64,000 bases of DNA. Origin: an uncultured Trueperaceae bacterium (lineage in GTDB: Bacteria > Deinococcota > Deinococci > Deinococcales > Trueperaceae). A program made the translations under genes and the position numbers. The notes under the pieces were generated by a model. The model was not told the DNA's origin. It was given only the letters and a program-made list of their open reading frames with translations, and did no database searches. The DNA is taken from assembly GCA_963799485.1 (NCBI GenBank), contig CAWCXJ010000012.1, positions 128,001-192,000 on the forward strand, written 5' to 3'. Below are positions 10,962-31,371 of the stretch, piece by piece (within the stretch, counting starts at the first letter, position 1; every line of letters starts with the position of its first letter).

Positions 10962-12104
10962 CTAACGCGACTCCAGCGGCGTAAACGTCTTGCCTTTTTC
11001 GCCCTCGTAAGAAAGTTTAGGCCGCATCAGGCGGTTGTCGGCGTACTGCTCTAAAAGGTGCGCCATCCAACCCGGCGTCCGGGAGACGGTAAAGATGGGT
11101 GTGTACATCTCGCCGGGAAACCCGAGCATCCGGTAGACCGACGCGGAGAAAAAATCGACGTTGGGCCTGACCTGTTTGCCTTTTTTGTCCATCTCGCGCT
11201 CCATGACCCGCTCCATCTCCTGCGACATCTCGAACCACTTCGAATCGCCGGACTCTTCGGCGAGTTTTTCGGAGACGCCCTCCAAAATCGCTGCGCGCGG
11301 GTCGAGCACGCGGTAGACGCGGTGCCCGAAACCGGGGATGCGGGCTTTGGGTTCCGAGAGTTTTTTCATCACGAAGTCTTCGACCGCTTCGACGCTGCCG
11401 ATTTCTTCTAACATCTGCATCACTGCCGTATTCGCGCCCCCGTGAAGCGGCCCCTTGAGTGAGCCAATGGCGGCGGTGATAGCGCTGTACACGTCGGTCA
11501 GGGTCGAAGCGGTCGCCCGCGCCACGAAGGTACTCGCGTTCGAGCCGTGTTCGGCGTGCAGCACGAGCGCCACGTCCATCACGCGCACGGCGGCCTCGGA
11601 AGGCTCTTCACCGCTGGTCATATAAAGAAAGTTCGCGGCGAGCGGCAGGTCGGGGTGCGGCGCGACGGGTTCTCGAGCTTCGCGGATACGCTGCAAGGCG
11701 GCGGTCAGGGTAACGATTTGCGCGGTCAGCCGGAGTCCGATGCGGCGCACGTTCTCGAGGTCAACGCCGTCGCTCTCTGTGTCCGACGCGGCAAGGAACG
11801 AAACGGCGGTGCGTAGGGCGTGCATCGGGCTTTCTTCTCTGGGGAAGTGCCGCAACACGTCGATGGCGTCATCAGGTACGGTGAAGTGAGGTTTGAGCGA
11901 CGTATGAAAATCGGAAAGCTCGCTCTCGGTGGGCAGCGAACCGTTCCACAACAAGTAGACCACCTCTTCAAACGAGGCTTTGTCGGCCAACTCGCGGATG
12001 TCGTAGCCGCGGTAGATGAGTTCGCCCTTCATCCCGTCGATGCTGCAGATTTCGCTGGTGTCGATAACTACCCCGTCGAGTCCGCGCTGAATCGTTTCGT
12101 CCAT
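10962..12104 (-). CDS. gltA: Citrate synthase
   Basis: GELIYRGY, HAEHGSNASTF, GPLHGGAN, GFGHRVY and PNVDF motifs; start placed at MDETIQ after the GGAGG SD. Confidence 0.93.
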   Translation of the reverse strand: MDETIQRGLDGVVIDTSEICSIDGMKGELIYRGYDIRELADKASFEEVVYLLWNGSLPTESELSDFHTSLKPHFTVPDDAIDVLRHFPREESPMHALRTAVSFLAASDTESDGVDLENVRRIGLRLTAQIVTLTAALQRIREAREPVAPHPDLPLAANFLYMTSGEEPSEAAVRVMDVALVLHAEHGSNASTFVARATASTLTDVYSAITAAIGSLKGPLHGGANTAVMQMLEEIGSVEAVEDFVMKKLSEPKARIPGFGHRVYRVLDPRAAILEGVSEKLAEESGDSKWFEMSQEMERVMEREMDKKGKQVRPNVDFFSASVYRMLGFPGEMYTPIFTVSRTPGWMAHLLEQYADNRLMRPKLSYEGEKGKTFTPLESR

Positions 12105-12210
12105 AAATTCCTCCATTAGGTCGCTTTTTTGCTGTTGCTTTTCTGCTATTACTCTAGTGTAGCTGCCCGCCGCGCAGGTCATGGTAAGGTCTGTGGGCTT
12201 TTGCGGGTTT

Positions 12211-13134
12211 CTAGCTTGCCGCGCTCTCCGGGTCGCTGTTTTTATCCCCGTCCGGCTCACGGTCACCGCGTAAAACGCTCAAGACGGTTTCACCGTAGCG
12301 CGAACGCTTGATCGGCCCGACCCCCTTGACGGTGCCGAGTTCGCCTAACGTTTGGGGATTTGCAGCAGCAAGCTGGGTGAGCGTGTCGTTGGTAAAGACG
12401 ATATAGGCCGGGACACCCTCGGCCTTGGCAGTTTCGCGCCGCCACGCCTCGAGCCGCTTGAGCCGAGTATCGGCCTCTACTGAGAGTGCGGTTTGCGGTT
12501 GCGGCTGAGCGGCGACAGCAGGTGCTTCGGTATGGGTCGGGGTGTCCGTTTGCGCTACGCGCTCAGGTTCGGCTGCGGGTGTAAAGGGCGGGGCAGACTC
12601 GCTCGCCGGTGTAGGTGCGCCGTCCGTGCCGTCTGAAAACGCCGGGCTAGCTGTTTGGACGGGTGTCTGAGCGGGTGTGTAGCTACCTGAAGCGGGTGTT
12701 TCGGGCGTATCCGTGTTCCCTTCGCGGTAGAGCAAATAGGCCCCGGCAGCCACCAGCACGAGCGCAAACGCCACCGAACCGAGGAGCCCGAACGAGCCCA
12801 ACGCGACAAGCGCGCCCAGCACTGCAAAGATACCCGCGCTGTAGAGCGCCCAGCGGTTGGGCTTGGGTTCGGTGCGGTCGATGGCGAAAAACCCGGCTGC
12901 CAAACTCAAGAGCATCCCGCTGTCGGTGCCTATAAGTGTGCCGACGGCGATACCCATCAAGACGCCGCCTGCGACCAGAAAATTGTAATTTTGACGCGAC
13001 ACATAGCCGACCAGAAAGATCGCGCTGATAAGCGCCAGCCAGAGCCAGTCCGCGCCGCCGATGCGTGAGAGCAGCATAATGACGCCGATAGTGATAAGCG
13101 CGTAGGCCAGTAGGCGCTGTGGTCTCGTTTTCAT
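12211..13134 (-). CDS. Membrane protein with Pro/Thr/Ala linker and C-terminal HRDC domain
   Basis: About 5-6 hydrophobic helices, then LEAWRRETAKAEGVPAYIVFTNDTL...VKGVGPIKRSRYG (HRDC). Confidence 0.8.
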   Translation of the reverse strand: MKTRPQRLLAYALITIGVIMLLSRIGGADWLWLALISAIFLVGYVSRQNYNFLVAGGVLMGIAVGTLIGTDSGMLLSLAAGFFAIDRTEPKPNRWALYSAGIFAVLGALVALGSFGLLGSVAFALVLVAAGAYLLYREGNTDTPETPASGSYTPAQTPVQTASPAFSDGTDGAPTPASESAPPFTPAAEPERVAQTDTPTHTEAPAVAAQPQPQTALSVEADTRLKRLEAWRRETAKAEGVPAYIVFTNDTLTQLAAANPQTLGELGTVKGVGPIKRSRYGETVLSVLRGDREPDGDKNSDPESAAS

Positions 13135-17276: not shown

Positions 17277-18554
17277 CTAAAAACTGGCAAACCCCCGCTC
17301 CCGCGCCCAGATCACCGCTTCAGTCCGGGAGTGCACCCCGAGCTTGTCGTAGAGGTTGGTAATGTAGTTGCGTACCGTTTGCTCGGCGAGCCCCAAGTCG
17401 GCGGCGATGGCGTCGTTGCTCCGGCCACTCGCGATATGCTCCAACACCTGCTTTTCACGTTTGGTCAGCGCGGCGACCTCCGCCGTATTAACGCGCTTGC
17501 CCGAACGTTTGGCCCGCGCCTGCGCAAGTTTTTCCATCAAGGAGCGGCTGAACCAGGCGGCGTCTTGCATCACCTCGCCTATCGCCTGTGTCAGCTCTTC
17601 TTCGGACTGTTTGCGTTCGGTAATATCGAAAAACATCTGCAGCAAACAGGGTGCGCCGCCCATCTCGACGGTCTCGGCGGACGCCAGGATGTCGCGGACG
17701 CCGCCCGCTTTCGTCCGAAACTGGAGTTCCAGGTCGTGATAACCCTGAGCGTCCCGTAAGGCTGCCGCTATTGCCCTTTGGTCTTCAGGTGAGGCCCACA
17801 TCCCCAGGGTTCGGTTCGTCTGACCGACGGCTTCGGCAGCGGTGTAACCGGTCAGCTTTTCAAAGCTCAGGTTGACGTCGAGAAAGCGCCCCTCACCGAG
17901 GGTCGTCAGGCAGGTTGCCACCGGGCCGACGCGAAACGCCTGTTCAAACCGCCTTTCGCTGTTCAGCAGCTGCTCCTTGGCCTTTTCGTGTTCGGCAACT
18001 TCCGCTTGAAGTTGCGTGTTGGCGGTGCGAAGGTCCAGAGTCCTTTCGCCGACCCGCGTCTCGAGCTGTTCGTTTGCCGTGTCTTGTGCGAGGAGCAAGT
18101 CGCGTACCTGATACTGCCGTTTGCGGGCAGTTAGCGCCGCGCGCACGACCGTGATGAGCGTCGGGACGCGGAGGGGGCGCTCGAGCACCGTCGCGGCGCT
18201 CAAGTTCCCCAAACCGCCCAGCCCCGACCATGACGCGCCGACCAAGAGCACGAGCGGCAGGTCCGACCAGCCCGGTTGCGTTTCGGCGGCGCGCTTTACG
18301 GCGGCGAGCGTCGCCGCCGTAAGCGCCTCTTCGGTGAGTAGTAGCACCCCCACGCCCGCGCTCAGCTGCGCCGCGAGGTCGCCGCCGGAGACTGTATCAA
18401 AGGCCGCGCACGGCAGACCGGCTGCTGAGAGCGCCCGGCATAACAGCAGGGCGTCTCGTCCCAGCGGAGCCAAAACCAAAACGCGCTCCGCCGGACTCGT
18501 TACCGGCTCCGTTACAGAAGCGGTTCCGGGGCCGGTTGGCGGTTCAGTCGTCAT
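17277..18554 (-). CDS. Pseudo-receiver + coiled coil + PAS + LuxR/NarL-type HTH transcriptional regulator
   Basis: N-terminal RVLVLAPLGRDA...QPGWSDLP...VLERP degenerate REC; PAS (DVNLSFEKLTGY...FDITERK); LTKREKQVLEHIASGRSN...TVRNYITNLYDKLGV HTH. Start overlaps the KaiC-like gene. Confidence 0.85.
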   Translation of the reverse strand: MTTEPPTGPGTASVTEPVTSPAERVLVLAPLGRDALLLCRALSAAGLPCAAFDTVSGGDLAAQLSAGVGVLLLTEEALTAATLAAVKRAAETQPGWSDLPLVLLVGASWSGLGGLGNLSAATVLERPLRVPTLITVVRAALTARKRQYQVRDLLLAQDTANEQLETRVGERTLDLRTANTQLQAEVAEHEKAKEQLLNSERRFEQAFRVGPVATCLTTLGEGRFLDVNLSFEKLTGYTAAEAVGQTNRTLGMWASPEDQRAIAAALRDAQGYHDLELQFRTKAGGVRDILASAETVEMGGAPCLLQMFFDITERKQSEEELTQAIGEVMQDAAWFSRSLMEKLAQARAKRSGKRVNTAEVAALTKREKQVLEHIASGRSNDAIAADLGLAEQTVRNYITNLYDKLGVHSRTEAVIWARERGFASF

Positions 18555-20058
18555 CTTGAGCGCGCCGCGTCAGCAAGTCTTCAGCGCGGCCCTGGTAGGT
18601 CGGCGTGCCCGTCAGGACGCCGCTAAACATGGTGATGGGGTCGCCGACCTGAATCCCGGCAGGGGTAATCCGCAGCTCCCGAATGGTATCTTCGTGCGGC
18701 CCGTAACGTTTTTTGATGACCGAAACCGCGAGCCGGAGGTGGCCTTCGGCCTCGAAGTGCCGCAACAGCAGCACCGTGTCGGCTAGGTAACTGATGTCTA
18801 GGGGCTCGAGTTCACCGCTCCCGAGCACGCCCCGTTCGGCCATAATCAAAAACGTCAGGACGCCCTTCCAGCTCAGGTAGGTGAGCAGCTCGTGAAGTTG
18901 CGCGACGAGCAGCGTTTCTTGCGGCATGGCGTTCAAGTAGCCCGTCAAGCTGTCGATGACCACCACCTTGGCCCCGCCTTTGCCCACGGCCTCCCGGACG
19001 ATGTGCGCAAACTCGCCGGGTGACAGCTCCCCGGCGTCCACTTGTTGCAGCCGCACTGTGCCCGCCTCGAGCTGCGGCCTCAGGTCGAGCCCCATTCCCT
19101 GCGAGCGCACGTGAAAAGTTTCGGGGCGCTCGTCGAACAAAAACACCGCCGCGCGTTCGCCACGGGCAGCGGCGGTGTGGGCGTAAAGCGTGGCGAGCGA
19201 GCTTTTGCCGGTGCCGGTCGGGCCGACCAGCAAACAGGCGGTGCCGAACTCGAGGCCGCCCCCCAACAGGTGGTCGAGTTCGCCGACGCCGCTCTCGGCG
19301 ACCGTCCGCTGCCTCGCGCCGTCGTCAGAAGACGCGGGCGTCTCGAGGCGCGGAAAAACCTCCAGCCCGCCCGTGCGGATACGAAAGCTGTGGTAGCCGC
19401 CGTGGTAGGTCATCCCGCGCCCCTTGTCGAGTTTGAGCCGCCGCCGCACGTCGCCGTAGTCGGGCGCGCGCTGCTCGAGCAGCAGCGCCCCGTGCGCCAC
19501 GGTCGCGAGCTGCCGGTCGCCCTGCTCGACCGGTTCACCGGTTAAAAAGAGCGAGGTACACTCGAGGTCGCTTAAAACCTGCTTGAACATCAGGAGCTGC
19601 GAGCGGTAGCGCAGCGGGTTGTCGGTCAGCAGCCGAATCTGCTCGATGGGGTCAAAGACCAGGCGCTCGGGTTTGGTTCGGGTGATGACCGCCATAATCG
19701 CCTCGGTCGTCTCTTTAAGCTCGACCTCGGCGGTGTGAAAGACCGTCTGCTCGGCAGTGATGTAAAGGGCCGCTTCACCTGCTGAAAACTCGTGGACGGG
19801 CATCCCGCCAAGCGACCAGCCGTGCGACGCGGCAATCTCGCGGAGCTCCCGTTCGGTGTGCGACAGCGTGATGTAAAGGACGCGCTCGCCGCGCCGTAAA
19901 CCCTCCAGGAGAAACTGCAAGCCGAGGGTCGTCTTGCCGGTACCGGGCGTACCCTGAACCAGGTACAGCCAGCCGCGCGGCAAGCCGCCGTTCAGCACCG
20001 TGTCGAGCCCGGTCACGCCGGTCGCGGCTTTTTCCGGGCCCGTCTCCATCCGGTTCAT
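18544..20058 (-). CDS. KaiC-like (RecA-superfamily) double-domain ATPase
   Basis: Two RecA-like domains (GTPGTGKT, GPTGTGKS), IDSLTGY, DISYLAD and KKRYG motifs. Confidence 0.9.
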   Translation of the reverse strand: MNRMETGPEKAATGVTGLDTVLNGGLPRGWLYLVQGTPGTGKTTLGLQFLLEGLRRGERVLYITLSHTERELREIAASHGWSLGGMPVHEFSAGEAALYITAEQTVFHTAEVELKETTEAIMAVITRTKPERLVFDPIEQIRLLTDNPLRYRSQLLMFKQVLSDLECTSLFLTGEPVEQGDRQLATVAHGALLLEQRAPDYGDVRRRLKLDKGRGMTYHGGYHSFRIRTGGLEVFPRLETPASSDDGARQRTVAESGVGELDHLLGGGLEFGTACLLVGPTGTGKSSLATLYAHTAAARGERAAVFLFDERPETFHVRSQGMGLDLRPQLEAGTVRLQQVDAGELSPGEFAHIVREAVGKGGAKVVVIDSLTGYLNAMPQETLLVAQLHELLTYLSWKGVLTFLIMAERGVLGSGELEPLDISYLADTVLLLRHFEAEGHLRLAVSVIKKRYGPHEDTIRELRITPAGIQVGDPITMFSGVLTGTPTYQGRAEDLLTRRAQDDD

Positions 20059-20223
20059 CAGGGTCGCCCGGGCCGAAGGCAGGTTGGTCGGCCCGGATCG
20101 GGTGACGTTCGTACTGCTTTTCTGGTGTTTTGGCGTCTAGTATCTAAGTAACTCATCTGTCGGTATGATATACCTAACCGTGTAATTCAAATTGTTATCT
20201 TCCCGCAAAGCTGAACCCGTGTC

Positions 20224-20291
20224 TAGGGGTTGAAACCCTTAGAGAACTGGTACTCGGGCCTCTGTAAGCGTCTTGGAAGGTTTGTTTTAAT
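20224..20291 (+). promoter_or_regulatory. Palindromic operator TAGGGGT-tgaa-ACCCTTA plus extended -10 (TG-t-TTTAAT)
   Basis: Motif 20224-20241; TG at 20283-84; hexamer 20286-91; upstream of the GGDEF gene. Confidence 0.6.
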
Positions 20292-20387
20292 AACGCGGTA
20301 ACACTCCGTTGGGGGCGGACCGGCAATAGACGACCTGCAAACGACCTGCAAACGACCTGCGCCTAGCGCCGCCGTCTGCAGTTTGTT

Positions 20388-21368
20388 TTGTCGGAGGCCC
20401 CGGCGAGCGCTCAACGTGTCAAGGCGCAGAGATTTAGGGAGGGTGTAACTATCAACCGAGCTGTTCTCGAGGCCACCCTCAACACCCTGAGCGAACCGCT
20501 GCTGGTTATCGGTTCCGACCGGCGGGTGACGTTTGTCAACGCGGCGTGGCGACGTTTGCGGGAGCAGCTAGGGGAACCGGACGGGGATAAGGCGTGGCTC
20601 GAGCCGGTTTACGGCACCGCTTACCAAGCCGGGTGCGGAAACCTGCTCAGTAACGAGGCAGCAAGGGGTGTCGAGGCTGTTCTGGGCGGAACTCTGCCCC
20701 GTTACGAGACTGTTTTTAAGTGCGCCGCCGGGTACGAAAGCCGTACCCTCAAACTCGAGGTGTTGCCGCTGGCACTAGGCTGCCCCGGCGCGCTGCTCAG
20801 CTACCATGACCTCACCGAACAGACGCGGCGTGAAACGGAAATCTACAACCTGGCGAACTTAGACCCGCTGACCGGACTATTTAACCGGCGTTTGTTCTTC
20901 GCCGAGGCCGAACGGGTGCTGGCGCTTGCCGAGCGGCACGGGCACCCTTTTACGCTCCTCTACCTAGACCTCGACGGTTTCAAGGCGGTAAACGACTCGA
21001 GCGGTCATGAAGTCGGCGACGAGGTGCTCTGCAGGGTGGCGGCGAGGTTGGGCGGGTGCCTGCGTAAAAGCGACCTGTTGGCACGTCTGGGCGGTGACGA
21101 GTTTTTGCTGCTGTTGCCGGAAACGGATGAACGGGAGAGTTTGGTAACGGTCAAGCGCTGCTTGGAGAGCCTTACCCGACCTTTTACGGTTGACGGTCAT
21201 ACCATCACGCTTACGGGCAGTTTCGGGGTTGCCCACTATCCGACTCATGCCCGCACGATTGACGAACTGGTGCGGCTGGCGGATAAGGCTATGTACCAGG
21301 CCAAAGCGAACGGCGGCGGCGTCCGGGTCGTCCCTAGAGCGACTGTTCACCGCAGCGCTTACCACTAA
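20388..21368 (+). CDS. PAS-GGDEF diguanylate cyclase (start uncertain)
   Basis: DPLTGLFNRR, DLDGFKAVND, RKSD I-site, intact GGDEF; N-terminal PAS-like domain. Confidence 0.88.
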   Translation: MSEAPASAQRVKAQRFREGVTINRAVLEATLNTLSEPLLVIGSDRRVTFVNAAWRRLREQLGEPDGDKAWLEPVYGTAYQAGCGNLLSNEAARGVEAVLGGTLPRYETVFKCAAGYESRTLKLEVLPLALGCPGALLSYHDLTEQTRRETEIYNLANLDPLTGLFNRRLFFAEAERVLALAERHGHPFTLLYLDLDGFKAVNDSSGHEVGDEVLCRVAARLGGCLRKSDLLARLGGDEFLLLLPETDERESLVTVKRCLESLTRPFTVDGHTITLTGSFGVAHYPTHARTIDELVRLADKAMYQAKANGGGVRVVPRATVHRSAYH

Positions 21369-21390
21369 AGGAAAGACACGTTAGGCCGAA

Positions 21391-21458
21391 CCGGGGTTAA
21401 AACCCCTAACGTTTTAGTCTATGTACCTCTGGCTGCGGCGCAACCTTCTTGTTAGGGT
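21391..21458 (+). promoter_or_regulatory. Palindromic operator CCGGGGT-taaa-ACCCCTA plus extended -10 (TG-t-TAGGGT)
   Basis: Motif 21391-21408; TG at 21450-51; hexamer 21453-58; upstream of the desaturase. Confidence 0.6.
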
Positions 21459-21622
21459 TGTAGCTGTAGACAGGTGTTTTATACGCTTTCCAACTGAGCT
21501 GTGCGCACGAAACCGTAAATGCCACCATAAATGTCACCGTTTCAAACAGTTTTAGTACCCGGCCTTGTCCGGTCGTAACGACCCAGCAGACCGCTACTTA
21601 CTTTCAAGCAAAGGAGCCCTCC

Positions 21623-22708
21623 TTGTCGAGCCTGACCATCCCCCCCGCGAGCATCCTAGACGACCTCCGCAGCCGCACGCCCGCCGGTATGCTGAGCCGC
21701 CAGGAAAAAGACCGGCTGATCGAACGCGGCTTTTTGGGTCTTTACCGCTGGTACACCGCCCGCAGCCAGGAGACGCGCAACTGGAACCCGGACAAATCGT
21801 TCGCCTGGCGCAACCTGCGCAAAGACTTCTCCGAACCGCTGATGCAGATTTTGCAGGGCTTCTTTGCCGTCGAGTACTACACCCCCGACTACGTCGACGA
21901 AATCCTGAACCTGGTACGCCGCTCTCACGGGCGCAGCCACTTCCAGCTCCGCTGGGGTTCCGAAGAAGAAAAACACGCCGACACCTGGGAGAACTCGCTT
22001 TTGTTCTCGCAGCAGCGCACGCCCGGCTTTATCGAGTCGTATAAAGAAGACCTGCGCGCCAGCGTCCACCGCAGTTTATGGGAAGGCGACGCGCTGCGTA
22101 ACCTCGTCTACACGGTGTTTCAAGAACGCGCCACCCAGCTCAACTACCTCAACCTGCTCAAGATCGCCAACGGCAAGTCGGACAAACCGCAGCACCAGAA
22201 CGACGCCGACCCGGTGCTAGCGCGTGTGGCCCAGACGATTGCCACCGACGAAGCCGCGCACTACAACTTCTTTCTAGAAGGCGTCAGACTTTTCTTGTAC
22301 TACTACCCGCAGCGCACTTTAGAGGCCATCCAAGACGTGATCACGCACTTTACGATGCCGGCGAACAACATCGTGCCGGATTGGGACAAGTTCAACTACG
22401 CGGTCTACAAAGCCGGGATTTACGGCCCCCGTGAATACGCCCGCGACGTGGTGCAGGTGGTGTTTCGCAACCTGGGGATCGAGAGCCGGAAAAAGCTCGA
22501 GGAGGGCATCAAAAAAGGCCGCATCGTCCCGAGCAAAGCAGACGACGGCACGCAGCTGACCGCCATCTGGGACTCGTTCGATTACGGGCTGGTCGAGGGC
22601 GACGTGCAGCGGATTTACGGCAAGATTACCAGGCACGAGCGTGACTTCGGGCGTTATGAGCTTGACCCCACCGACTTTGTACCAAATCCCGAGTGGCCGG
22701 GGAAGTAA
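21623..22708 (+). CDS. Soluble di-iron acyl-ACP desaturase family protein
   Basis: WGSEEEKH, VFQERAT and DEAAH di-iron motifs; HFTMP; AAGGAG SD before the TTG start. Confidence 0.82.
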   Translation: MSSLTIPPASILDDLRSRTPAGMLSRQEKDRLIERGFLGLYRWYTARSQETRNWNPDKSFAWRNLRKDFSEPLMQILQGFFAVEYYTPDYVDEILNLVRRSHGRSHFQLRWGSEEEKHADTWENSLLFSQQRTPGFIESYKEDLRASVHRSLWEGDALRNLVYTVFQERATQLNYLNLLKIANGKSDKPQHQNDADPVLARVAQTIATDEAAHYNFFLEGVRLFLYYYPQRTLEAIQDVITHFTMPANNIVPDWDKFNYAVYKAGIYGPREYARDVVQVVFRNLGIESRKKLEEGIKKGRIVPSKADDGTQLTAIWDSFDYGLVEGDVQRIYGKITRHERDFGRYELDPTDFVPNPEWPGK

Positions 22709-22740
22709 CGCCTCCAAAGGCCTGCGTGTCAGATTACAGT

Positions 22741-22781
22741 AAAAAGGCCTGAACGTAGAGGGGGGGTAGTACGTTCAGGCC
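22741..22781 (-). terminator. Strong intrinsic terminator on the minus strand, C-rich loop
   Basis: 12-bp perfect stem GGCCTGAACGTA/TACGTTCAGGCC, loop CTACCCCCCCTC and TTTTT tail on the minus strand. Confidence 0.7.
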
Positions 22782-22878
22782 GCAAAACGTTCACGAAACC
22801 GTGGTACTTGCTCCCCCAGCAACCGTTTTTCGCAACTCTGCCCGTCGCCCCTGCGGTTGTTGGGCGCATCCCGGTTTC
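22741..22878 (-). ncRNA. Candidate structured sRNA of about 140 nt
   Basis: Bounded by the operator/promoter at 22885-22952 and the terminator; closing stem GAAACCG/CGGTTTC; hairpin TTGCT-GGGGG-AGCAA; no credible ORF. Confidence 0.45.
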
Positions 22879-22884
22879 ACCCAT

Positions 22885-22952
22885 CATTAAACAAAACGGT
22901 GTCGGGCTGGAACAGAGGTGGCTGTCAAATATATAAGGGGTTTTTACCCCGG
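22885..22952 (-). promoter_or_regulatory. Palindromic operator CCGGGGT-aaaa-ACCCCTT (minus strand) plus TG and AT-rich -10-like element
   Basis: Motif 22935-22952; TG at 22893-92, then tTTAATG (weakest -10 of the four). Confidence 0.55.
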
Positions 22953-23039
22953 TTTTCTACCTTTACCGGAACCGGCACATGGAGCCTGGTCGGGCCGGTT
23001 CGCTTCACCGTTTTACGGCGGGTGAACGCAAGCAACCTT

Positions 23040-23390
23040 TTACCCGACCCTCTCAGCCGAGCAAAAACACATACGCCGCAACATCAGCAGATGGGCGTGC
23101 AGCACCTCTAACGCCGTCACGCTGAGGATGTTGGTTTCGTAGCAGGTGGCGAGGGTCTCGAGGTTCTCTCTTACCAGACCGTAGGCCCTACTGCTCGCGT
23201 GGTCGCGGTAGCCGGGTAGACGTGCGTAAAGTTCATCAATCGTTCTCTGAATCTCCTCGTGGTAGCCGCGCGCCGAGGTAAACTCCCAAGGCCGTTCAAA
23301 GTGCCCCTCGAGGCTGGGTTCTGGAAAACTGTCTGTAAGGCAATCTGTGTTACGCACCGCCACCTCCACGCCTGTAATAGCCTGTTGCAC
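23040..23390 (-). CDS. Hypothetical protein
   Basis: 116-aa ORF 10 nt downstream of the DUF2382-like gene; no recognised motif; start uncertain. Confidence 0.35.
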   Translation of the reverse strand: MQQAITGVEVAVRNTDCLTDSFPEPSLEGHFERPWEFTSARGYHEEIQRTIDELYARLPGYRDHASSRAYGLVRENLETLATCYETNILSVTALEVLHAHLLMLRRMCFCSAERVG

Positions 23391-23400
23391 CGAAGGGCAC

Positions 23401-23708
23401 TTAAAAGGTACTCCCCAAGTCGGTTTTGTCTTTATCCGCAGTTTCGGTTCGTTCGACCGCTATTTTTTCACGCCTGAACGTGACCTGCGGTGCGTCCGTA
23501 TGTTCCGAGCGCTGCGTCGTCACCCGCACCTCTGCGACGAGCATCAGCTGTTTGCCGACGACCGGCACCGCTTCGTAACGGAACACAATCACCGTGTCGC
23601 TCTCATAACGCTTTACGGCGTCTCTGCTAAAGCCGCTGCTGGTCAGCTCGCCAACCACCTGTCGGACGTAGCGAGACTGCCAAAAACACCGATTACACTG
23701 TTCATCAT
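23401..23708 (-). pseudogene. Short YsnF/AvaK (DUF2382)-like stress protein, frameshifted at ~23660
   Basis: AAGGAG SD plus MMNSVIGVFGSLATSD, then a shift into VVGELTSSGFSRD...PVVGKQLMLVAEVRV...VTFRREKIAVER (DUF2382-like). The shift may be an assembly error. Confidence 0.55.
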
Positions 23709-23825
23709 GGTTTTCTCCTTTGCGCTAATTACAGCTGCTTCAACCGCAAATTTGAAGAGGTTCTTACCCCTGCTCGCTAGGTGTTTGAACCCTACGGCTT
23801 GCGCTTTACGGCCTGAACCGGCTAC

Positions 23826-23863
23826 TTTGAACCCGGTACTTTTGAACCCGGTACTTTTGAACC
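23826..23863. repeat. 15-bp tandem repeat (TTTGAACCCGGTACT x2.5)
   Basis: Seen directly. Confidence 0.8.
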
Positions 23864-24402
23864 ATCATCCACTCGAGGTCACCGGCGCGAAGTTCTAGTG
23901 AGCTGATGGTCGCCTTCCGGGGTTTGTTTGCCGCGTCAGCGCCACATTACGGCAAAAACCGATGCGTTTATTCCCGGCTATGCGCGCTGGACTGGAAGCT
24001 CATACAGAAAACTCACACAGACGGTTGTGCTTCTCCGAGTTTCGCACCCGTCAACCCGGCAATGACCGTTTGAGGGTTTGCAAGCTTGGCCTGTAAACAT
24101 GCATAAATACCAGAAGTCGGTGTTTTAAGCCTAGTACTCCCACCCAGATACATCTGTTGTGTGCCGCTTGCGTCTGCTAGATTGCAACTGAAGCGTCGTG
24201 CTCGGCACACCGCAGCTCAACACACCGCAAAAGCAACTTCATAGAACACGACAAACAAGCACGACAAGCCGCGTAGCCGGATCGGCTTTTTAGAAAAGCA
24301 CCGGATTTTGGGCTCGAGCGTCCTTCAGGCGCACATAACATTCAGGCGCACATAAGCTGTCGGCAACACGAGCAGGAGCCAAAGTTAGGAGTCGGGGTAG
24401 TT

Positions 24403-25096
24403 ATGACGGATTGGCACGGCACACAAGCTGAACTCGGGGCGGTTCTTGACTGCTATTACCGACGGGCTTTTCGTGCTCGATAGCGACTGGCGTTTTACTT
24501 TCCTAAACGCACCGGCGGAGCAGTGGTGGCGCGCGCACGAGGAAAAACCGGGCCAAGCAAACCTCGCCGGCGCAAATGCCTGGGAGACATTCCCGGAAAC
24601 CGTCGGTAGCGACCTCTACGAAGCTTGCCACCACGCGTCCCGGGCACAGACCCCCGGCAAGCTCGAGCTTTACGCCGCGTCCCGCAAGCAGTGGCTTATG
24701 CTGCGCCTTTATCCGTTCCCTGACGGGCTTTGTGTTTATTTTGTGGACGTAAGTGACTACAAGCAGCTAGAACACGAGCTGCTCGGGGCACTTCAAGAGA
24801 TAGCTAGCGAAACCCTGTGGTTTAACCATTCACTCACCGATAAGCTGGCGCAAACTGCCGCCAAGACGCGCAGGGCCGCCGCAAAAGCCGCCGCGCCGCC
24901 GCTGACCCGGCGCGAAAAGCAGGTTTTAGAACATATCGCCAGAGGGCACGATGACCGCTACATCGCCGCCGCTCTGGGCCTTGTCGAGCAGACTGTGCGT
25001 AACTACATCACGCGTCTTTACGCAAAACTGGGGGTTCATTCACGCGCTGAAGCCGTCGTCTGGGCGCGTGAACGCGGGCTTGGCAGAACCGAATAG
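24403..25096 (+). CDS. PAS + LuxR/NarL-type HTH regulator (one extra base at ~24447 separates the ATG from the main ORF)
   Basis: AITDGLFVLDSDWRFTFLN PAS; the HTH is very similar to that of 17277..18554 (LTRREKQVLEHIARG...EQTVRNYITRLYAKLGVHSRAEAVVWARERG). Confidence 0.8.
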
Positions 25097-25226
25097 AGCA
25101 GCGAACCCTGTACAGGCGAATTACAGACTGCACCTCTACGTTCCCGACCACAATTTTTCGGTAAATATGTTTGACAAATAGTTGACAGCGCGCGCGAGTA
25201 GCCGGTGACGCACCCGTAATCCCTAT

Positions 25227-25294
25227 TAGGGGTAGCTACCCCTACGTAACCGGTCTTTACTTCTCTGGTGTGCCCTTTTAGAAATTGCTAACTT
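25227..25294 (+). promoter_or_regulatory. Perfect palindromic operator TAGGGGT-agct-ACCCCTA plus extended -10 (TG-c-TAACTT)
   Basis: Motif 25227-25244; TG at 25286-87; hexamer 25289-94. Confidence 0.65.
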
Positions 25295-25312
25295 TGAAAG
25301 GCACGTTAACGG

Positions 25313-25490
25313 CTCGAGCTCGCTTTTTGTCTGAGAGTTACATGGGGTGGGAGTGGCTAAAATTAGATGTTTTGTAAGACGCAGCAAGGTTCAAAGCTTT
25401 GGGGCTTGCTAAGTTTCAAGGGTACAAGGTGACTCGAGTCTACCTTTTGTCTGGGGGTTACAGGGGGTAACTGAGGCTGGATGTTTTGTA
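25313..25490 (+). repeat. Degenerate direct repeat, 120-bp period, with conserved predicted hairpin; candidate ncRNA
   Basis: CTCGAG..TTTTGTCTG..GTTACA-G-rich..GATGTTTTGTA at 25313-25376 and 25433-25490. Confidence 0.65.
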
Positions 25491-25705
25491 GGGAGCCGTA
25501 CAGGTCTAAACGGTTAGGTAACCAAAAGGAGAAATGTGCAGGCCGGTGAACACGCCTCGAGCTTTCAGTGGACAGCCGTCGGCGCGAGCAGCGGTACCGA
25601 CTACGAAAACTCGGGTTCGGAACCGACGACGGTCATCACGCAGTAATAGCGACAGCAACAACGACAGTAAGGCAACCGTAAAGCGCTAAACGAACTACCA
25701 AAACC

Positions 25706-25733
25706 GCTGGGCAGGTGAGCTCACCTGCCCAGC
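25706..25733. repeat. Perfect 28-bp palindrome
   Basis: GCTGGGCAGGTGAGCTCACCTGCCCAGC equals its own reverse complement. Confidence 0.9.
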
Positions 25734-25768
25734 CGCAATCCCCACCTTTTCCAGCAAAGGAGCAGCAC

Positions 25769-26338
25769 ATGAATATCCGTAACGGGTGGCGCACCGCCGT
25801 CACCGACACTACCGGTAACACCTCACGACGTTTTCCTCGAGCCTTACGCAGTTATCTACTCGCCTTCGGCGCGCTTCTCCTTTTGACGACGGCCTGCAAC
25901 AACCCGGCGCAAACCCAGGACCCGACGCTCAACGAAGAACTGACGGCGCTTCAGGCCCAGGTCGGCGACTTCGAGTCGCAAGTGACCGAACAGACCCAGG
26001 CGCTGCAAGACGCACGTGCGCGTGTCAACGAATTAGAGGCCCGGCTCGCCGAACAGCAGCAGCAGGTCGCAGAGGCCGAAACGGTGGTGCAGGAGCGTGA
26101 CCAGTTCAGGCAACAACTTGCGGCGCGGCAGACTGCCTTGCAGAGAGCGCAGGCGCGGATTCGGAACCTGGAACAGCGGCGCGAGCTGACGCTCGAGGAG
26201 CGCTTAGCGTCGATCAACCAGCGGATCGATATTCTTCAGCAGGAGCGCGCCCAGCTCAATGGTCAGGCCGGGGGTCAGGCCGGGCCGGGAACGCAAGCTC
26301 CGGCAACGAACGAGGTTGGGGCCGACTCCACCCCGTAA
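25769..26338 (+). CDS. Coiled-coil lipoprotein, hypothetical
   Basis: AAGGAG SD; LLLLTTAC lipobox; Gln/Glu/Arg heptad-rich body. Confidence 0.65.
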   Translation: MNIRNGWRTAVTDTTGNTSRRFPRALRSYLLAFGALLLLTTACNNPAQTQDPTLNEELTALQAQVGDFESQVTEQTQALQDARARVNELEARLAEQQQQVAEAETVVQERDQFRQQLAARQTALQRAQARIRNLEQRRELTLEERLASINQRIDILQQERAQLNGQAGGQAGPGTQAPATNEVGADSTP

Positions 26339-26452
26339 AGCTTATTGATTGAGCGCGCGGCGCACTTCGCCGCGCTTCAACCAACATTTTTTACGCGGCG
26401 CTTGTCAAACAACCGTTACAGGATATGGGCTACCCAGAGGAGAGCCTAGAAA

Positions 26453-26608
26453 ATGTCAACGACAACAGCAAACCCAAAAGGCTCGAGCACCGCTACCGGA
26501 CTGTCTGATGCTGTGAGTACAGGTCGTCAGGTCGCGGCTGAACTCGTCAACCGTGGCTTTGACTGGGGCGTGGTGACGCTCGGGCGCGAAGTGTTTACTG
26601 CGCTGTGA
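26453..26608 (+). CDS. Small hypothetical protein (51 aa)
   Basis: GAGGAG SD; MSTTTANPKGSSTATGLSDAVSTGRQVAAELVNRGFDWGVVTLGREVFTAL; below the ORF-track cutoff. Confidence 0.35.
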   Translation: MSTTTANPKGSSTATGLSDAVSTGRQVAAELVNRGFDWGVVTLGREVFTAL

Positions 26609-29907: not shown

Positions 29908-31371
29908 GTGTCCCATCTAGACGAGGCGCTCGAGCTGCTGCTGGCGCGCACCCACAGAGACCCCGAACTCGCTGCGGCGCTGCGAACCCTCTTGGAGGGT
30001 GTTTTGGCGCGTTTACCCGAGCCCGGGCCGGTCGCTGGGCCCGTACCCGAATCTGCGCCGGTCGCAGTAGCCCCCGCAGAACCGGCGTCTGCTCCTGAAG
30101 CCGAGTTAAACGGTGAGACAACCGGTGCGCTAACCGACGAGATAACCTTCGTCGAGTGGCCCGAGTTGGGAGCCGTAGGCAGAAATCTGCAGCTCAAGGC
30201 GGGTGCGTGCCGCTGGGTAGCGGCCTACGGCTACACCGAAGAACCCGCGGCCCTCGGCGAACGCTACGCGCTGCTCGACCACGCGAAAGCGGCAGGGTGT
30301 TTTTTGTGGATGTTTGACCGCGTCCGCGTCAATCCCTACAACACGGCCGGGCTCACCACCCTGGCTGAACTGTTCGAGTTGACGGCGCAGGCGCTGAACT
30401 TCTGGCGCGACGCCGGCGACACGCCCGAGGAGCGGGCAGCCGATCACCTCCTGGCGGACGCGCAGGCGGCGGTGCGCGCCGCTGCCTGGACGCTGGCCGG
30501 CTATAGCGACCCCGATCAGTACGACCTCTACAAAGCGCTAAAACTGAGCGCGCAAGCCTCGAGAACCTATTTGCCGCAGCTCAGTCTGGGCTACCGCCCC
30601 CCGGCGCTGGGCGAACTCACGGTGCGGCTGGCAGCGCTTGGCGAGGCCAGGCAAGCGCGCGAGGCGCGGGCGCGGGCAAGCAAAAAACTTTACGGCAAGG
30701 CGCACTATCACATCAAGCTGGTTGCTAAAAACCCGGCCGACATGGCCCAGTGGCGCAAGGTCGATGAGGCCGTGCGCGAGCTGCTGGCGCAGGGCGAAGC
30801 GGTCGCGGGTCTCCTCGAGCCGCTCCGGGGGCGCGCCGTACCCCCGGATTTGTCCCGGCTCGCCGCGCTGCTGAGGTTGCCTTTAGCCGCGCCGCCCGCA
30901 CCCGTGGGGCAAACCTCGTTCGTCCCCGCCGCGCCGCAACTGCCGGAAAGCGCGAGCGAGGCGGTGAGGCGCGTCGGGCAGCTTTTGGCAGGGCGTGAAA
31001 TCCTGATCGTCGGCGGCGACGAACGCAAAGAGGCGGTCGCGGGGCTTGCCGCGGCGTTCGGTTGCCGCGTGCGGTGGCTCGAGACCGCGCCGCACACCTC
31101 GCTGTCGCTGCTCGAGCCTGCCGTGACCGAAAGTGTCGCGGTCGTCTTGCTGCTGATCCGCTGGTCGAGCCATGTTTACGGCGAACTCGCGCACGTCTGC
31201 AAGGCGCGGGGCGTGCCGCTGGTCAGGCTCGCGGGGGGCTATAACCCCAACCGGGTCGCGCACGACGTGCTGGGGCAAGCGGCGGCGCGGCTCAGCCCGG
31301 ATAGTAGACCTGACAACAAACTTGACGACGCTGACGATACCGACGACAAAGCGCTCGAGCACACGGCCTGA
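29908..31371 (+). CDS. Hypothetical protein with C-terminal DUF2325-like domain
   Basis: AAGGAGG SD; C-terminal ILIVGG...VVLLLIRWSSH...CKARGVPLV. Confidence 0.6.
   Translation: MSHLDEALELLLARTHRDPELAAALRTLLEGVLARLPEPGPVAGPVPESAPVAVAPAEPASAPEAELNGETTGALTDEITFVEWPELGAVGRNLQLKAGACRWVAAYGYTEEPAALGERYALLDHAKAAGCFLWMFDRVRVNPYNTAGLTTLAELFELTAQALNFWRDAGDTPEERAADHLLADAQAAVRAAAWTLAGYSDPDQYDLYKALKLSAQASRTYLPQLSLGYRPPALGELTVRLAALGEARQAREARARASKKLYGKAHYHIKLVAKNPADMAQWRKVDEAVRELLAQGEAVAGLLEPLRGRAVPPDLSRLAALLRLPLAAPPAPVGQTSFVPAAPQLPESASEAVRRVGQLLAGREILIVGGDERKEAVAGLAAAFGCRVRWLETAPHTSLSLLEPAVTESVAVVLLLIRWSSHVYGELAHVCKARGVPLVRLAGGYNPNRVAHDVLGQAAARLSPDSRPDNKLDDADDTDDKALEHTA

Follow-up and report, generated by a model that had tools for sequence, protein, structure and literature searches.

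The 64,000-nucleotide (nt) window analysed here is positions 128,001 to 192,000 of contig CAWCXJ010000012.1 from an uncultured Trueperaceae bacterium. It holds an operon that opens with a gene for a KaiC-like ATPase and continues with one for a regulator of 425 amino acids (aa), a second and related regulator gene, genes for a diguanylate cyclase, a fatty-acid desaturase and a DUF2382 protein, and five predicted promoters (S1 to S4 and P5) built on an 18-bp palindrome. The operon and regulator genes are as follows.

18544..20058, minus strand: KaiC-like double-domain ATPase gene, 504 aa, first gene of the operon (PF06745 KaiC in two stretches, E 2e-67)
17277..18554, minus strand: regulator gene, 425 aa, with a predicted pseudo-receiver, a coiled coil, a PAS domain (201-315) and a GerE/LuxR helix-turn-helix (HTH; 362-417; Pfam PAS and GerE)
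24446..25096, plus strand: second regulator gene, 216 aa (Pfam GerE, E 2.7e-17, and PAS_4), without a pseudo-receiver

Predicted two-site promoters in a local cluster

A first-pass annotation of this DNA had described four 18-bp palindromes; their positions and letters are correct, and the list of open reading frames (ORFs) together with Pfam confirmed that all four are intergenic. The promoters that they belong to, and a fifth, are laid out as follows.

20224..20291, plus strand: promoter S1; distal palindrome TAGGGGTTGAAACCCTTA at 20224-20241, with one mismatch in the right half; proximal site 20247-20264, ending CTCTG; TTTAAT at 20286-20291; predicted start about 20298
21391..21458, plus strand: promoter S2; distal palindrome CCGGGGTTAAAACCCCTA at 21391-21408; proximal site 21414-21431; TAGGGT at 21453-21458; predicted start about 21465
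22886..22952, minus strand: promoter S3; distal palindrome CCGGGGTAAAAACCCCTT at 22952-22935; proximal site 22930-22913; TTTAAT at 22891-22886; predicted start about 22879
25227..25294, plus strand: promoter S4; distal palindrome TAGGGGTAGCTACCCCTA at 25227-25244; proximal site 25250-25267; TAACTT at 25289-25294; predicted start about 25301
23728..23795, minus strand: fifth promoter P5; distal site 23795-23778, with 2 mismatches; proximal site 23772-23755, with 1 mismatch and ending CCTCTT; TGTAAT at 23733-23728; predicted start about 23721

The palindrome core, GGGGTNNNNACCCC (GGGGT-N4-ACCCC), occurs with at most one mismatch six times in the window against 2.24 +/- 1.56 times in shuffled sequence, six or more copies being reached in 2 of 100 shuffles. 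Genome-wide (3.66 Mb) there are seven exact cores, which is no excess over the 8.8 expected from base composition or the 3.25 expected from a first-order Markov model. Because three of these seven fall inside 3.85 kb (p about 1.2e-4) and the total is not in excess, the motif is a local cluster and gives no genome-wide regulon signal. The other exact cores lie in coding sequence on contigs C1 and C7 or are terminator-like on C6 and C8, none with a box or hexamer of the kind described next, and a core with one mismatch at 31235 lies within ORF 29908-31371 and was taken as chance.

A CTCTG box follows every S1-S4 palindrome at 17-18 nt and stands exactly 21 nt ahead of every hexamer (TTTAAT, TAGGGT, TTTAAT and TAACTT in order), with unrelated sequence in between. 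S3 has 17 nt between palindrome and box where the others have 18, and shares with them the 21 nt from box to hexamer. A scan of the genome for the core with up to two mismatches and CTCTG at that distance returned 16 rows, and with at most one mismatch, CTCTG and a T(A/T)nnnT hexamer it returned S1-S4 only. The module therefore reads, in order, palindrome, 4-5 nt, a degenerate second 18-bp site ending TCTG, 21 nt and T(A/T)nnnT, and with this common fixed layout the earlier proposal of a local regulon of co-designed promoters stands. The accompanying statement that the window holds no further copies is true of exact cores and overlooked a degenerate fifth pair at 23755-23795 on the minus strand, where cores at 23757 (one mismatch) and 23780 (two mismatches) lie 23 bp apart. 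In this promoter, P5, the sites are separated by 5 nt and the hexamer follows after 21 nt, as in the grammar of S1-S4, the stronger site being the proximal one; downstream of the hexamer come AAGGAG and then ATG 23708 of the DUF2382 gene. As also described earlier, a TG lies 42-43 nt beyond each of the four motifs, followed by the hexamers named there. Such a TGn "extended -10" is found at 4/4 sites in the window and in 0/13 promoters of relatives, and is thus not a conserved part of the element.

To describe the second site we used a collection of 17 promoters of the module layout from 10 genomes (this genome and 9 others of the family). The proximal site is a poor palindrome, with 4-6 mismatches at 10 core positions. 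In three relatives, a full palindrome (CTGGGGTCCTGGCCCCTG, TTGGGGTTCTGGCCTCTG and CTGGGGTCCGTGCCTCTG) stands ahead of a PF00487 membrane desaturase gene, ends GCC(C/T)CTG and lies exactly 21 nt before TACGGT, TAGGCT or TAGGAT, which is the place of the proximal site; among the CTCTG-ending 18-mers, traces of a left half persist as GG at positions 3-4 (11/17 and 15/17). Because full palindromes occupy its place in three relatives and left-half traces remain, the CTCTG box appears to close a second, degenerate operator on its promoter side. With the hexamer taken as the -10 element (-12 to -7), the proximal site would extend from -51 to -34 with its centre at -42.5, and the distal site from -74 to -57 with its centre at -65.5, the two centres being 23 bp apart (22 bp in S3). 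On the same assumption the palindrome falls near -65, where the first-pass annotation had put it. Its picture of a lone class-I site at that position does not hold, since a second site ends 21 nt before the hexamer in 17/17 promoters and no -35 consensus is present; a sigma-70-type TTGACA/TATAAT -35/-10 pair was found 0 times in 19900-26500, with 1.3 expected. TCTG is more invariant than a weak half-site would require, and the box may have a double role as a -35-like contact.

Conservation of the module and its genomic island

The KaiC-like gene has its nearest relatives in assemblies of Deinococcales and Trueperaceae, whose loci show a palindrome, 18 nt, (C/T)TCTG, 21-22 nt and TAnnnT, directed away from the kaiC-like gene. 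Conservation in relatives was one of the checks that the annotation had proposed, and the module was found in 9 further genomes of the family, nearly always beside the KaiC-like/regulator operon. Over the 17 promoters, the distal consensus is nnGGGGTcacgACCCCnn, with G3, G6, T7, A12, C13, C14 and C15 present in 17/17 and the core columns at 13-17/17; the consensus of the proximal 18-mer is ntgGnncnnnCgCCTCTG, with the terminal T, C and T in 17/17 and G in 16/17; and that of the hexamer is TAGnnT. The spacers of the same promoters diverge freely. Because the spacers differ freely while the sites keep their letters, we read the module as a footprint of selection, beyond recent common descent alone. 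The half-sites keep their letters and do not co-vary over the 17 sites, which fits a protein site and not an RNA stem.

A weight matrix built solely from 9 promoters of relatives was scanned over both strands of this genome, a second check that had been proposed, and S2, S1 and S4 came out at ranks 2, 3 and 5 (scores 14.0, 14.0 and 12.5; best score in the reversed genome 12.0). S3 escapes the matrix because its first gap is 17 nt. The top match (17.5), at position 17286 of contig C13, lies inside an insertion sequence (IS) transposase fragment and is probably due to chance. Palindromes in L068 and L069 were set aside, being situated in conserved coding-like sequence. As a separate observation, position 668351 of contig C6 (L071 about 1850-1895) has a one-mismatch palindrome with TAATTT following after 22 nt; downstream lies a second PAS-GGDEF gene, whose product is 39% identical to that of the island, and the site is a possible class-II-type target outside the window.

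We also asked in which genomes the module occurs, using the strict pattern GNNGTNNNNACCCC-N19-21-YTCTG-N21-22-TANNNT. In a sample of the order comprising 151 genomes, the KaiC-like gene is present in 8 and the strict pattern in 4, all within those 8; the pattern is found in 0/143 genomes without the KaiC-like gene, and the reversed-pattern control gave 1 match. Among 128 genomes of the family, the strict pattern is present in 9 (control, 2 matches), and a regulator match starting within the first 20 residues in 11, with a twelfth genome (G166) carrying a regulator that is full-length in its locus. The pattern occurs in 8 of these 12 genomes with a full-length regulator, and 8 of the 9 genomes with the pattern carry it; one of the 12, G128, has two relaxed copies, ending CTCTA and ATCTG. 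The pattern is absent from three KaiC-positive genomes that lack the LuxR form: in two of them (G031 and G068) the pseudo-receiver is fused to GGDEF, and in the third (G032) a GGDEF gene follows the kaiC-like gene and a pseudo-receiver was not detected. A LuxR-type protein is by far the best candidate reader of the sites, and because the strict pattern and the 425-aa regulator co-occur over genomes, it is the KaiC-linked regulator that is pointed to.

In comparison with five genomes of the same genus, DNA similarity extends to about 17137 and resumes at about 26608. These flanks match genome G005 at unlinked places of one contig, 2.58 Mb and 0.91 Mb (1.7 Mb apart), and the KaiC-like gene is found in 0/5 of the same-genus genomes. 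The approximately 9.5 kb in between (17.1-26.6 kb) is specific to this genome in that comparison and holds both regulators and all five promoters, the exceptions being the coding part of the desaturase gene, similarity among LuxR-domain paralogues, and two short G005 matches, of 97 and 44 nt, to the DUF2382 region. The stretch behaves as an island at a synteny break. The desaturase coding sequence at 21610-22707 is 99.45% identical over 1098 bp to a second copy in this genome (G000:C9:46135-47232), and flanks shared by relatives surround the C9 copy only. Because its flanks are common to relatives, the C9 copy is the resident one, and the island copy a recent duplicate of the coding part alone, placed behind S2 and a 144-nt leader. 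In relatives another desaturase family is under the same operator, which suggests that the desaturation output was kept or regained through a different gene. The arrangement offers a view of regulon growth in action, with a recent copy of a host desaturase behind an island promoter and the other desaturase family placed there in relatives.

The KaiC-like ATPase, the adjacent regulator gene and the proposed circuit

Solved KaiC chains match the KaiC-like protein over its whole length (8zn5_B best, E 2e-48), and the gene that encodes it is the only double-domain KaiC-family gene of the genome. In the alignment to 8zn5_B, the I-S-T motif of KaiC, which we take to be the phosphorylation pair, lies opposite I-S-Y of the KaiC-like protein. 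Of the components of a KaiABC clock, the double-domain KaiC is thus present and the KaiB partner was not found, with 0 matches to KaiB (PF07689) in this genome, which is rated 99.99% complete. The start of the 425-aa regulator gene overlaps the end of the kaiC-like gene by 11 nt. The idea that a palindrome also serves the kaiC-like operon was considered and rejected, because in relatives the distance to the operon's -10-like hexamer ranges from 41 to 49 nt and shows no fixed design. Separately, in L015, L016, L032 and L066 a -10-like hexamer (TATCAT, CATAAT or TATGAT) stands 5-6 nt before the kaiC-like ATG, which suggests that the kaiC-like mRNA is leaderless there; this arrangement was not seen in the window.

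The N-terminal 160 aa of the 425-aa protein align over their full length, weakly, with receiver domains (E 0.014-0.8). Where a receiver carries its phospho-acceptor Asp, 8/8 orthologues have E, G or A; the acidic pair near the start of the domain is gone and the conserved Lys has become Arg. Because acceptor Asp and acidic pair are absent and Lys is replaced by Arg, this domain is best regarded as a pseudo-receiver, a type of domain used by CikA and KaiA; among its weak matches is chain 2j48_A, labelled "two-component sensor kinase", which is presumably the CikA pseudo-receiver. Pfam found no histidine kinase gene in the island, such as would mark a two-component response regulator, and, besides PAS and GerE, no autoinducer-binding domain, such as would mark a quorum-sensing LuxR protein; the likeness to two-component response regulators would be confined to the DNA end. 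As expected of a GerE/LuxR operator, two GerE-type genes are linked to the sites and the inverted repeat is conserved and spaced for a dimer.

The solved HTH domains nearest to that of the 425-aa regulator are those of DesR (4ldz, E 1.3e-10, with TVRNYI in common), followed by GerE, VpsT, DosR (1zlj, E 6.8e-9) and NarL. The 425-aa and 216-aa proteins share 56% identity across linker plus HTH and 74% across the 62-residue HTH; both contain EQTVRNYIT, and the recognition stretch EQTVRNY(I/V)T is present in 7/7 compared orthologues as well as in the 216-aa paralogue. The first-pass annotation had nominated the two local LuxR proteins, on the likeness of their HTHs, as activators; the LuxR family and this likeness are retained here, and the co-transcribed KaiC-like gene, the pseudo-receiver and the fact that the locus is an island had been missed.

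In 29/42 loci of many phyla, including Alphaproteobacteria, Gemmatimonadota, Planctomycetota, Myxococcota, Spirochaetota, Chloroflexota and others, the gene after the kaiC-like one encodes a homologue of the pseudo-receiver. Outside the LuxR clade it is fused to a histidine kinase in 21/21 scanned loci (within L017-L055), and it is fused to GGDEF in two genomes of the sister genus g21 (L068 and L069). Because the homologue follows the kaiC-like gene in so many loci and phyla, the pairing of KaiC-like ATPase and pseudo-receiver appears to be old and widespread, with the LuxR output as a local replacement. C-di-GMP (cyclic di-GMP) synthesis would accordingly be reached by fusion or, here, by transcription. 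Prediction of a complex between the KaiC-like protein and the pseudo-receiver gave a score of 0.47 (best of three controls, 0.00), with contact agreement among runs of at least 89% and a predicted local distance difference test (pLDDT) value of at least 76 for the partner. The mark used is reached by 116/157 solved complexes and 2/215 mismatched pairs, and is reached at 0.60 or under by 18/157 solved complexes and by both passing mismatches; the score thus lends weak support to the contact.

From the promoter layout and its conservation, we consider it likely that transcription is activated by LuxR dimers occupying two sites, a strong one near -65.5 and a weak one near -42.5, in the manner of DesR and DevR. 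In our working model, the palindromes would be high-affinity operators for a GerE/LuxR-type activator, and a dimer on the strong distal site would help a second dimer onto the weak proximal site, which overlaps the -35 region, so that the regulator bound there could recruit RNA polymerase. The reader would be the 425-aa pseudo-receiver-PAS-LuxR protein encoded directly after the KaiC-like ATPase gene; the 216-aa PAS-LuxR paralogue, possibly independent of KaiC, may share or compete for the same sites. With less support, we speculate that the KaiC-like ATPase sets the activity of the regulator through a pseudo-receiver that could not be phosphorylated on the usual Asp, and that the PAS domain of the 425-aa protein may provide a second input. 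The outputs would be the PAS-GGDEF cyclase, the fatty-acid desaturase, the stress-type DUF2382 protein, a short RNA and, behind a long leader, a lipoprotein gene, and the island probably tunes c-di-GMP signalling and membrane-lipid unsaturation. More tentatively, and with less than even confidence, we propose as a possibility that a KaiB-free KaiC-family ATPase acts directly on a transcription factor via its pseudo-receiver, the kinase relay of most phyla being cut down to a single protein that reads a defined operator and turns on c-di-GMP synthesis and desaturation of membrane lipids, and that the circuit moves as a gene-capturing 9.5-kb island.

Several points weigh against this model. All positions relative to +1 depend on taking T(A/T)nnnT as the -10 element; the centre-to-centre spacing of 23 bp (22 in S3) is not exactly two helical turns; and with so poor a palindrome and so over-conserved a TCTG, the proximal site may have another reader, for instance sigma region 4. 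The matrix is not fully specific, its top score falling inside a transposase fragment. For autoregulation, the distance from the palindrome to the kaiC-like start varies, being 41-49 nt in relatives and 166 nt here. Four genomes with a full-length regulator lack the strict pattern (G128, the one inspected for relaxed copies, and G223, G232 and G233), and in the fragmented genome G224 a 2.5-kb contig bears the pattern while no regulator was detected. The genomes that bear the pattern are kin (4/36 genera), and the co-occurrence counts overstate their independence. Finally, the further PAS-LuxR paralogues of this genome that have TVRNY helices could read the sites.

The last point leads to an explanation in which the palindromes are real LuxR-type operators read by the 216-aa protein or by another PAS-LuxR paralogue, with the KaiC-like ATPase uninvolved, or in which they serve repression or anti-repression. 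The 216-aa protein has EQTVRNYIT and is encoded within the island beside S4, TVRNY helices occur in three or more further PAS-LuxR genes of the genome, the family has many PAS-LuxR genes, and the complex prediction supports the contact between KaiC and regulator weakly. However, relatives that keep the module carry the KaiC-linked regulator, a second LuxR was not seen in their loci, and the five same-genus genomes have PAS-LuxR paralogues and show the pattern in 0/5, while the missing -35 element and the upstream placement fit activation rather than repression; we regard this explanation as unlikely. It is also quite improbable, in our judgement, that an alternative sigma factor uses the TCTG box as its -35 and the hexamer as its -10 element, the palindrome belonging to another protein and no proximal LuxR site existing. 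The invariance of TCTG in 16-17/17 promoters, above the rest of the proximal site, and the rigid 21-nt distance between box and hexamer would suit a sigma factor, but the desaturase promoters of three relatives have a full palindrome exactly there, ending C(C/T)CTG, Pfam finds no sigma-factor gene in the island, and TAGnnT resembles an ordinary housekeeping -10.

We give very little credence to the idea that the palindromes are not protein sites and instead either work as RNA hairpins, in weak attenuators or terminators of both strands, or represent copies of a small repeat. S3 is called terminator-like on both strands, S2 lies 23 nt past the GGDEF stop, and two other exact cores (contigs C6 and C8) are terminator-like as well. 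Yet the stem has 5 bp, S1 and S4 have no T-run, and S1, S2 and S4 are not called, S3 alone passing a lax scan; terminator-like calls in the region are at the level of chance (10 against 8.9 +/- 3.6); and over 17 sites the letters are conserved rather than co-varying, at a fixed distance from the downstream hexamer. A mobile repeat would have like flanks, and those of the palindromes are unlike.

The activation by paired LuxR dimers that we favour has counterparts in known systems. DesR of the DesK-DesR system of Bacillus subtilis is the closest solved HTH relative and, like the regulator proposed here, activates a fatty-acid desaturase gene; the arrangement described for the des promoter matches the palindrome and third, promoter-proximal half-site seen here. 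In contrast to DesK-DesR, the input here would be a KaiC-like ATPase and an Asp-less pseudo-receiver rather than a membrane histidine kinase and phosphorylation, the operator letters differ, and the regulon adds a diguanylate cyclase and other genes. The desaturases are of the soluble acyl-ACP (acyl carrier protein) type (PF03405) here and of the PF00487 family in relatives. For DevR/DosR of Mycobacterium tuberculosis, the published account describes a NarL/LuxR-family dimer that binds a palindrome with the G-rich half-site G4G5G6A7C8T9, and tandem strong and weak boxes at -42.5 and -63.5, both of which are needed at a critical spacing, half-turn insertions abolishing weak-box binding and activity (PMC3177182). 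Strong and weak tandem sites and a G-rich palindrome half-site are common to both systems, whereas here the centres are 23 rather than 21 bp apart and the distal site is usually the strong one; unlike DevR, the regulator here would be no phosphorylated response regulator.

As in the cyanobacterial KaiC output (SasA/CikA to RpaA), a double-domain KaiC-family ATPase would be coupled to a signalling protein, and the partner of this KaiC-like clade is a histidine kinase in most phyla. The differences are that no KaiB was found in this genome and that the place of kinase and response regulator is taken by a DNA-binding domain within the one polypeptide, which would leave a single protein between ATPase and DNA. 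The lux boxes of LuxR/TraR-type regulators are class II sites centred near -42.5. The desaturase promoters of the three relatives resemble them in placing an inverted repeat for a GerE-type HTH dimer over the -35 region, whereas no autoinducer-binding domain is present here and the promoters of the window add a stronger upstream site. A literature search on KaiC with Deinococcus or LuxR, judged from listings and abstracts, found no paper on this module, with subscription journals outside its coverage. New here would be the KaiC-like/pseudo-receiver input, the fifth promoter, the conservation across genera, and a mobile, gene-capturing island.

The functions of many KaiC homologues outside cyanobacteria are largely open, and the locus offers a complete, compact and testable circuit, running from an ATPase as input through a relay of one protein to an 18-bp operator of precise two-site grammar and five promoters. 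These promoters could be used as reporters for what a KaiB-less KaiC senses. If the more tentative proposal is true, the KaiB-free KaiC-family ATPase may be a slow timer, a thermometer or an energy gauge, and the circuit would provide, outside cyanobacteria, a KaiC output pathway whose DNA address is known.

Predicted target genes and transcripts

The predicted targets are the following.

20388-21368, plus strand: PAS-GGDEF diguanylate cyclase gene (GGDEF, Pfam E 9.5e-50), behind S1 and divergent from the kaiC-like operon
21623-22708, plus strand: acyl-ACP-type desaturase gene (FA_desaturase_2, PF03405, E 8e-24), behind S2
22741..22879, minus strand: candidate RNA of ~139 nt from S3, with a hairpin at 22781-22746 and a U-run, convergent with the desaturase gene
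ATG 23708 to 23401, minus strand: DUF2382 gene (Pfam), behind P5
23390-23040, minus strand: 116-aa ORF following the DUF2382 gene
25301..26338, plus strand: predicted S4 transcript, with a long leader and then a coiled-coil lipoprotein-like ORF (25715/25766-26338) with a lipobox-like LLLTTAC

Both of the outputs that the earlier annotation had predicted, c-di-GMP synthesis and fatty-acid desaturation, recur in relatives, and with the stress protein these outputs recur by different genetic routes. Further targets that recur in relatives are a diacylglycerol-kinase-like lipid kinase and a small protein of 120-140 aa (DUF5670 in one case).

The same annotation had predicted two non-coding RNAs, of which the one from S3 (~139 nt, with a strong terminator) is upheld as a candidate and the one from S4 is more likely a leader. 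The predicted S3 RNA folds at -57.6 kcal/mol (z -2.1 against shuffles) and has a 12-bp, GC-rich terminal hairpin followed by UUUUU; a 46-aa frame within it runs through the terminator and was judged non-coding. Rfam gave 0 matches over the whole window at gathering score and, over 19800-26000 at E up to 5, chance-level matches only, none of them in the S3 or S4 transcripts. Because its fold beats shuffles somewhat and a terminator is present, with no Rfam match or credible ORF, the S3 transcript makes a reasonable candidate for a small RNA. For the 91 nt that separate the 116-aa ORF from S3, the fold has a z of 0.06.

For S4, no plus-strand terminator is predicted between the promoter and the lipoprotein-like ORF, and for this reason S4 more likely gives a ~460-nt leader ahead of the coiled-coil lipoprotein gene than a separate RNA. 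The leader was rejected as a structured RNA, its fold being no better than shuffles (z -0.1). A perfect palindrome of 28 nt at 25706-25733, just before the lipoprotein-like ORF, scores as a minus-strand terminator. Directly after S4 lies a tandem duplication of ~120 nt (25285-25526) whose second copy repeats the -10 region, with TTGCTAAGTT at 25406; a third, partial copy starts near 25552. A 51-aa ORF at 25534-25689 stands behind a good AAGGAG, belongs to no family and has an odd, very basic make-up; we judged it doubtful.

Short tandem repeats were also noted, with an 11-nt unit present ~2.7 times in the S1 leader (20330-20359) and a 15-nt unit ~2.8 times at 23823-23863, upstream of the 216-aa regulator gene. 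The DUF2382 gene (23650-23708, minus strand) and the 216-aa PAS-LuxR gene (24404-24450, plus strand) look frame-shifted near their 5' ends, a well-placed ATG opening a short frame in both cases and the domain resuming in another frame, which may reflect sequencing error or real decay. In a relative (L013, genome G015), the conserved promoter is followed by a PAS-GGDEF gene that is broken into two overlapping frames (11387-12491).

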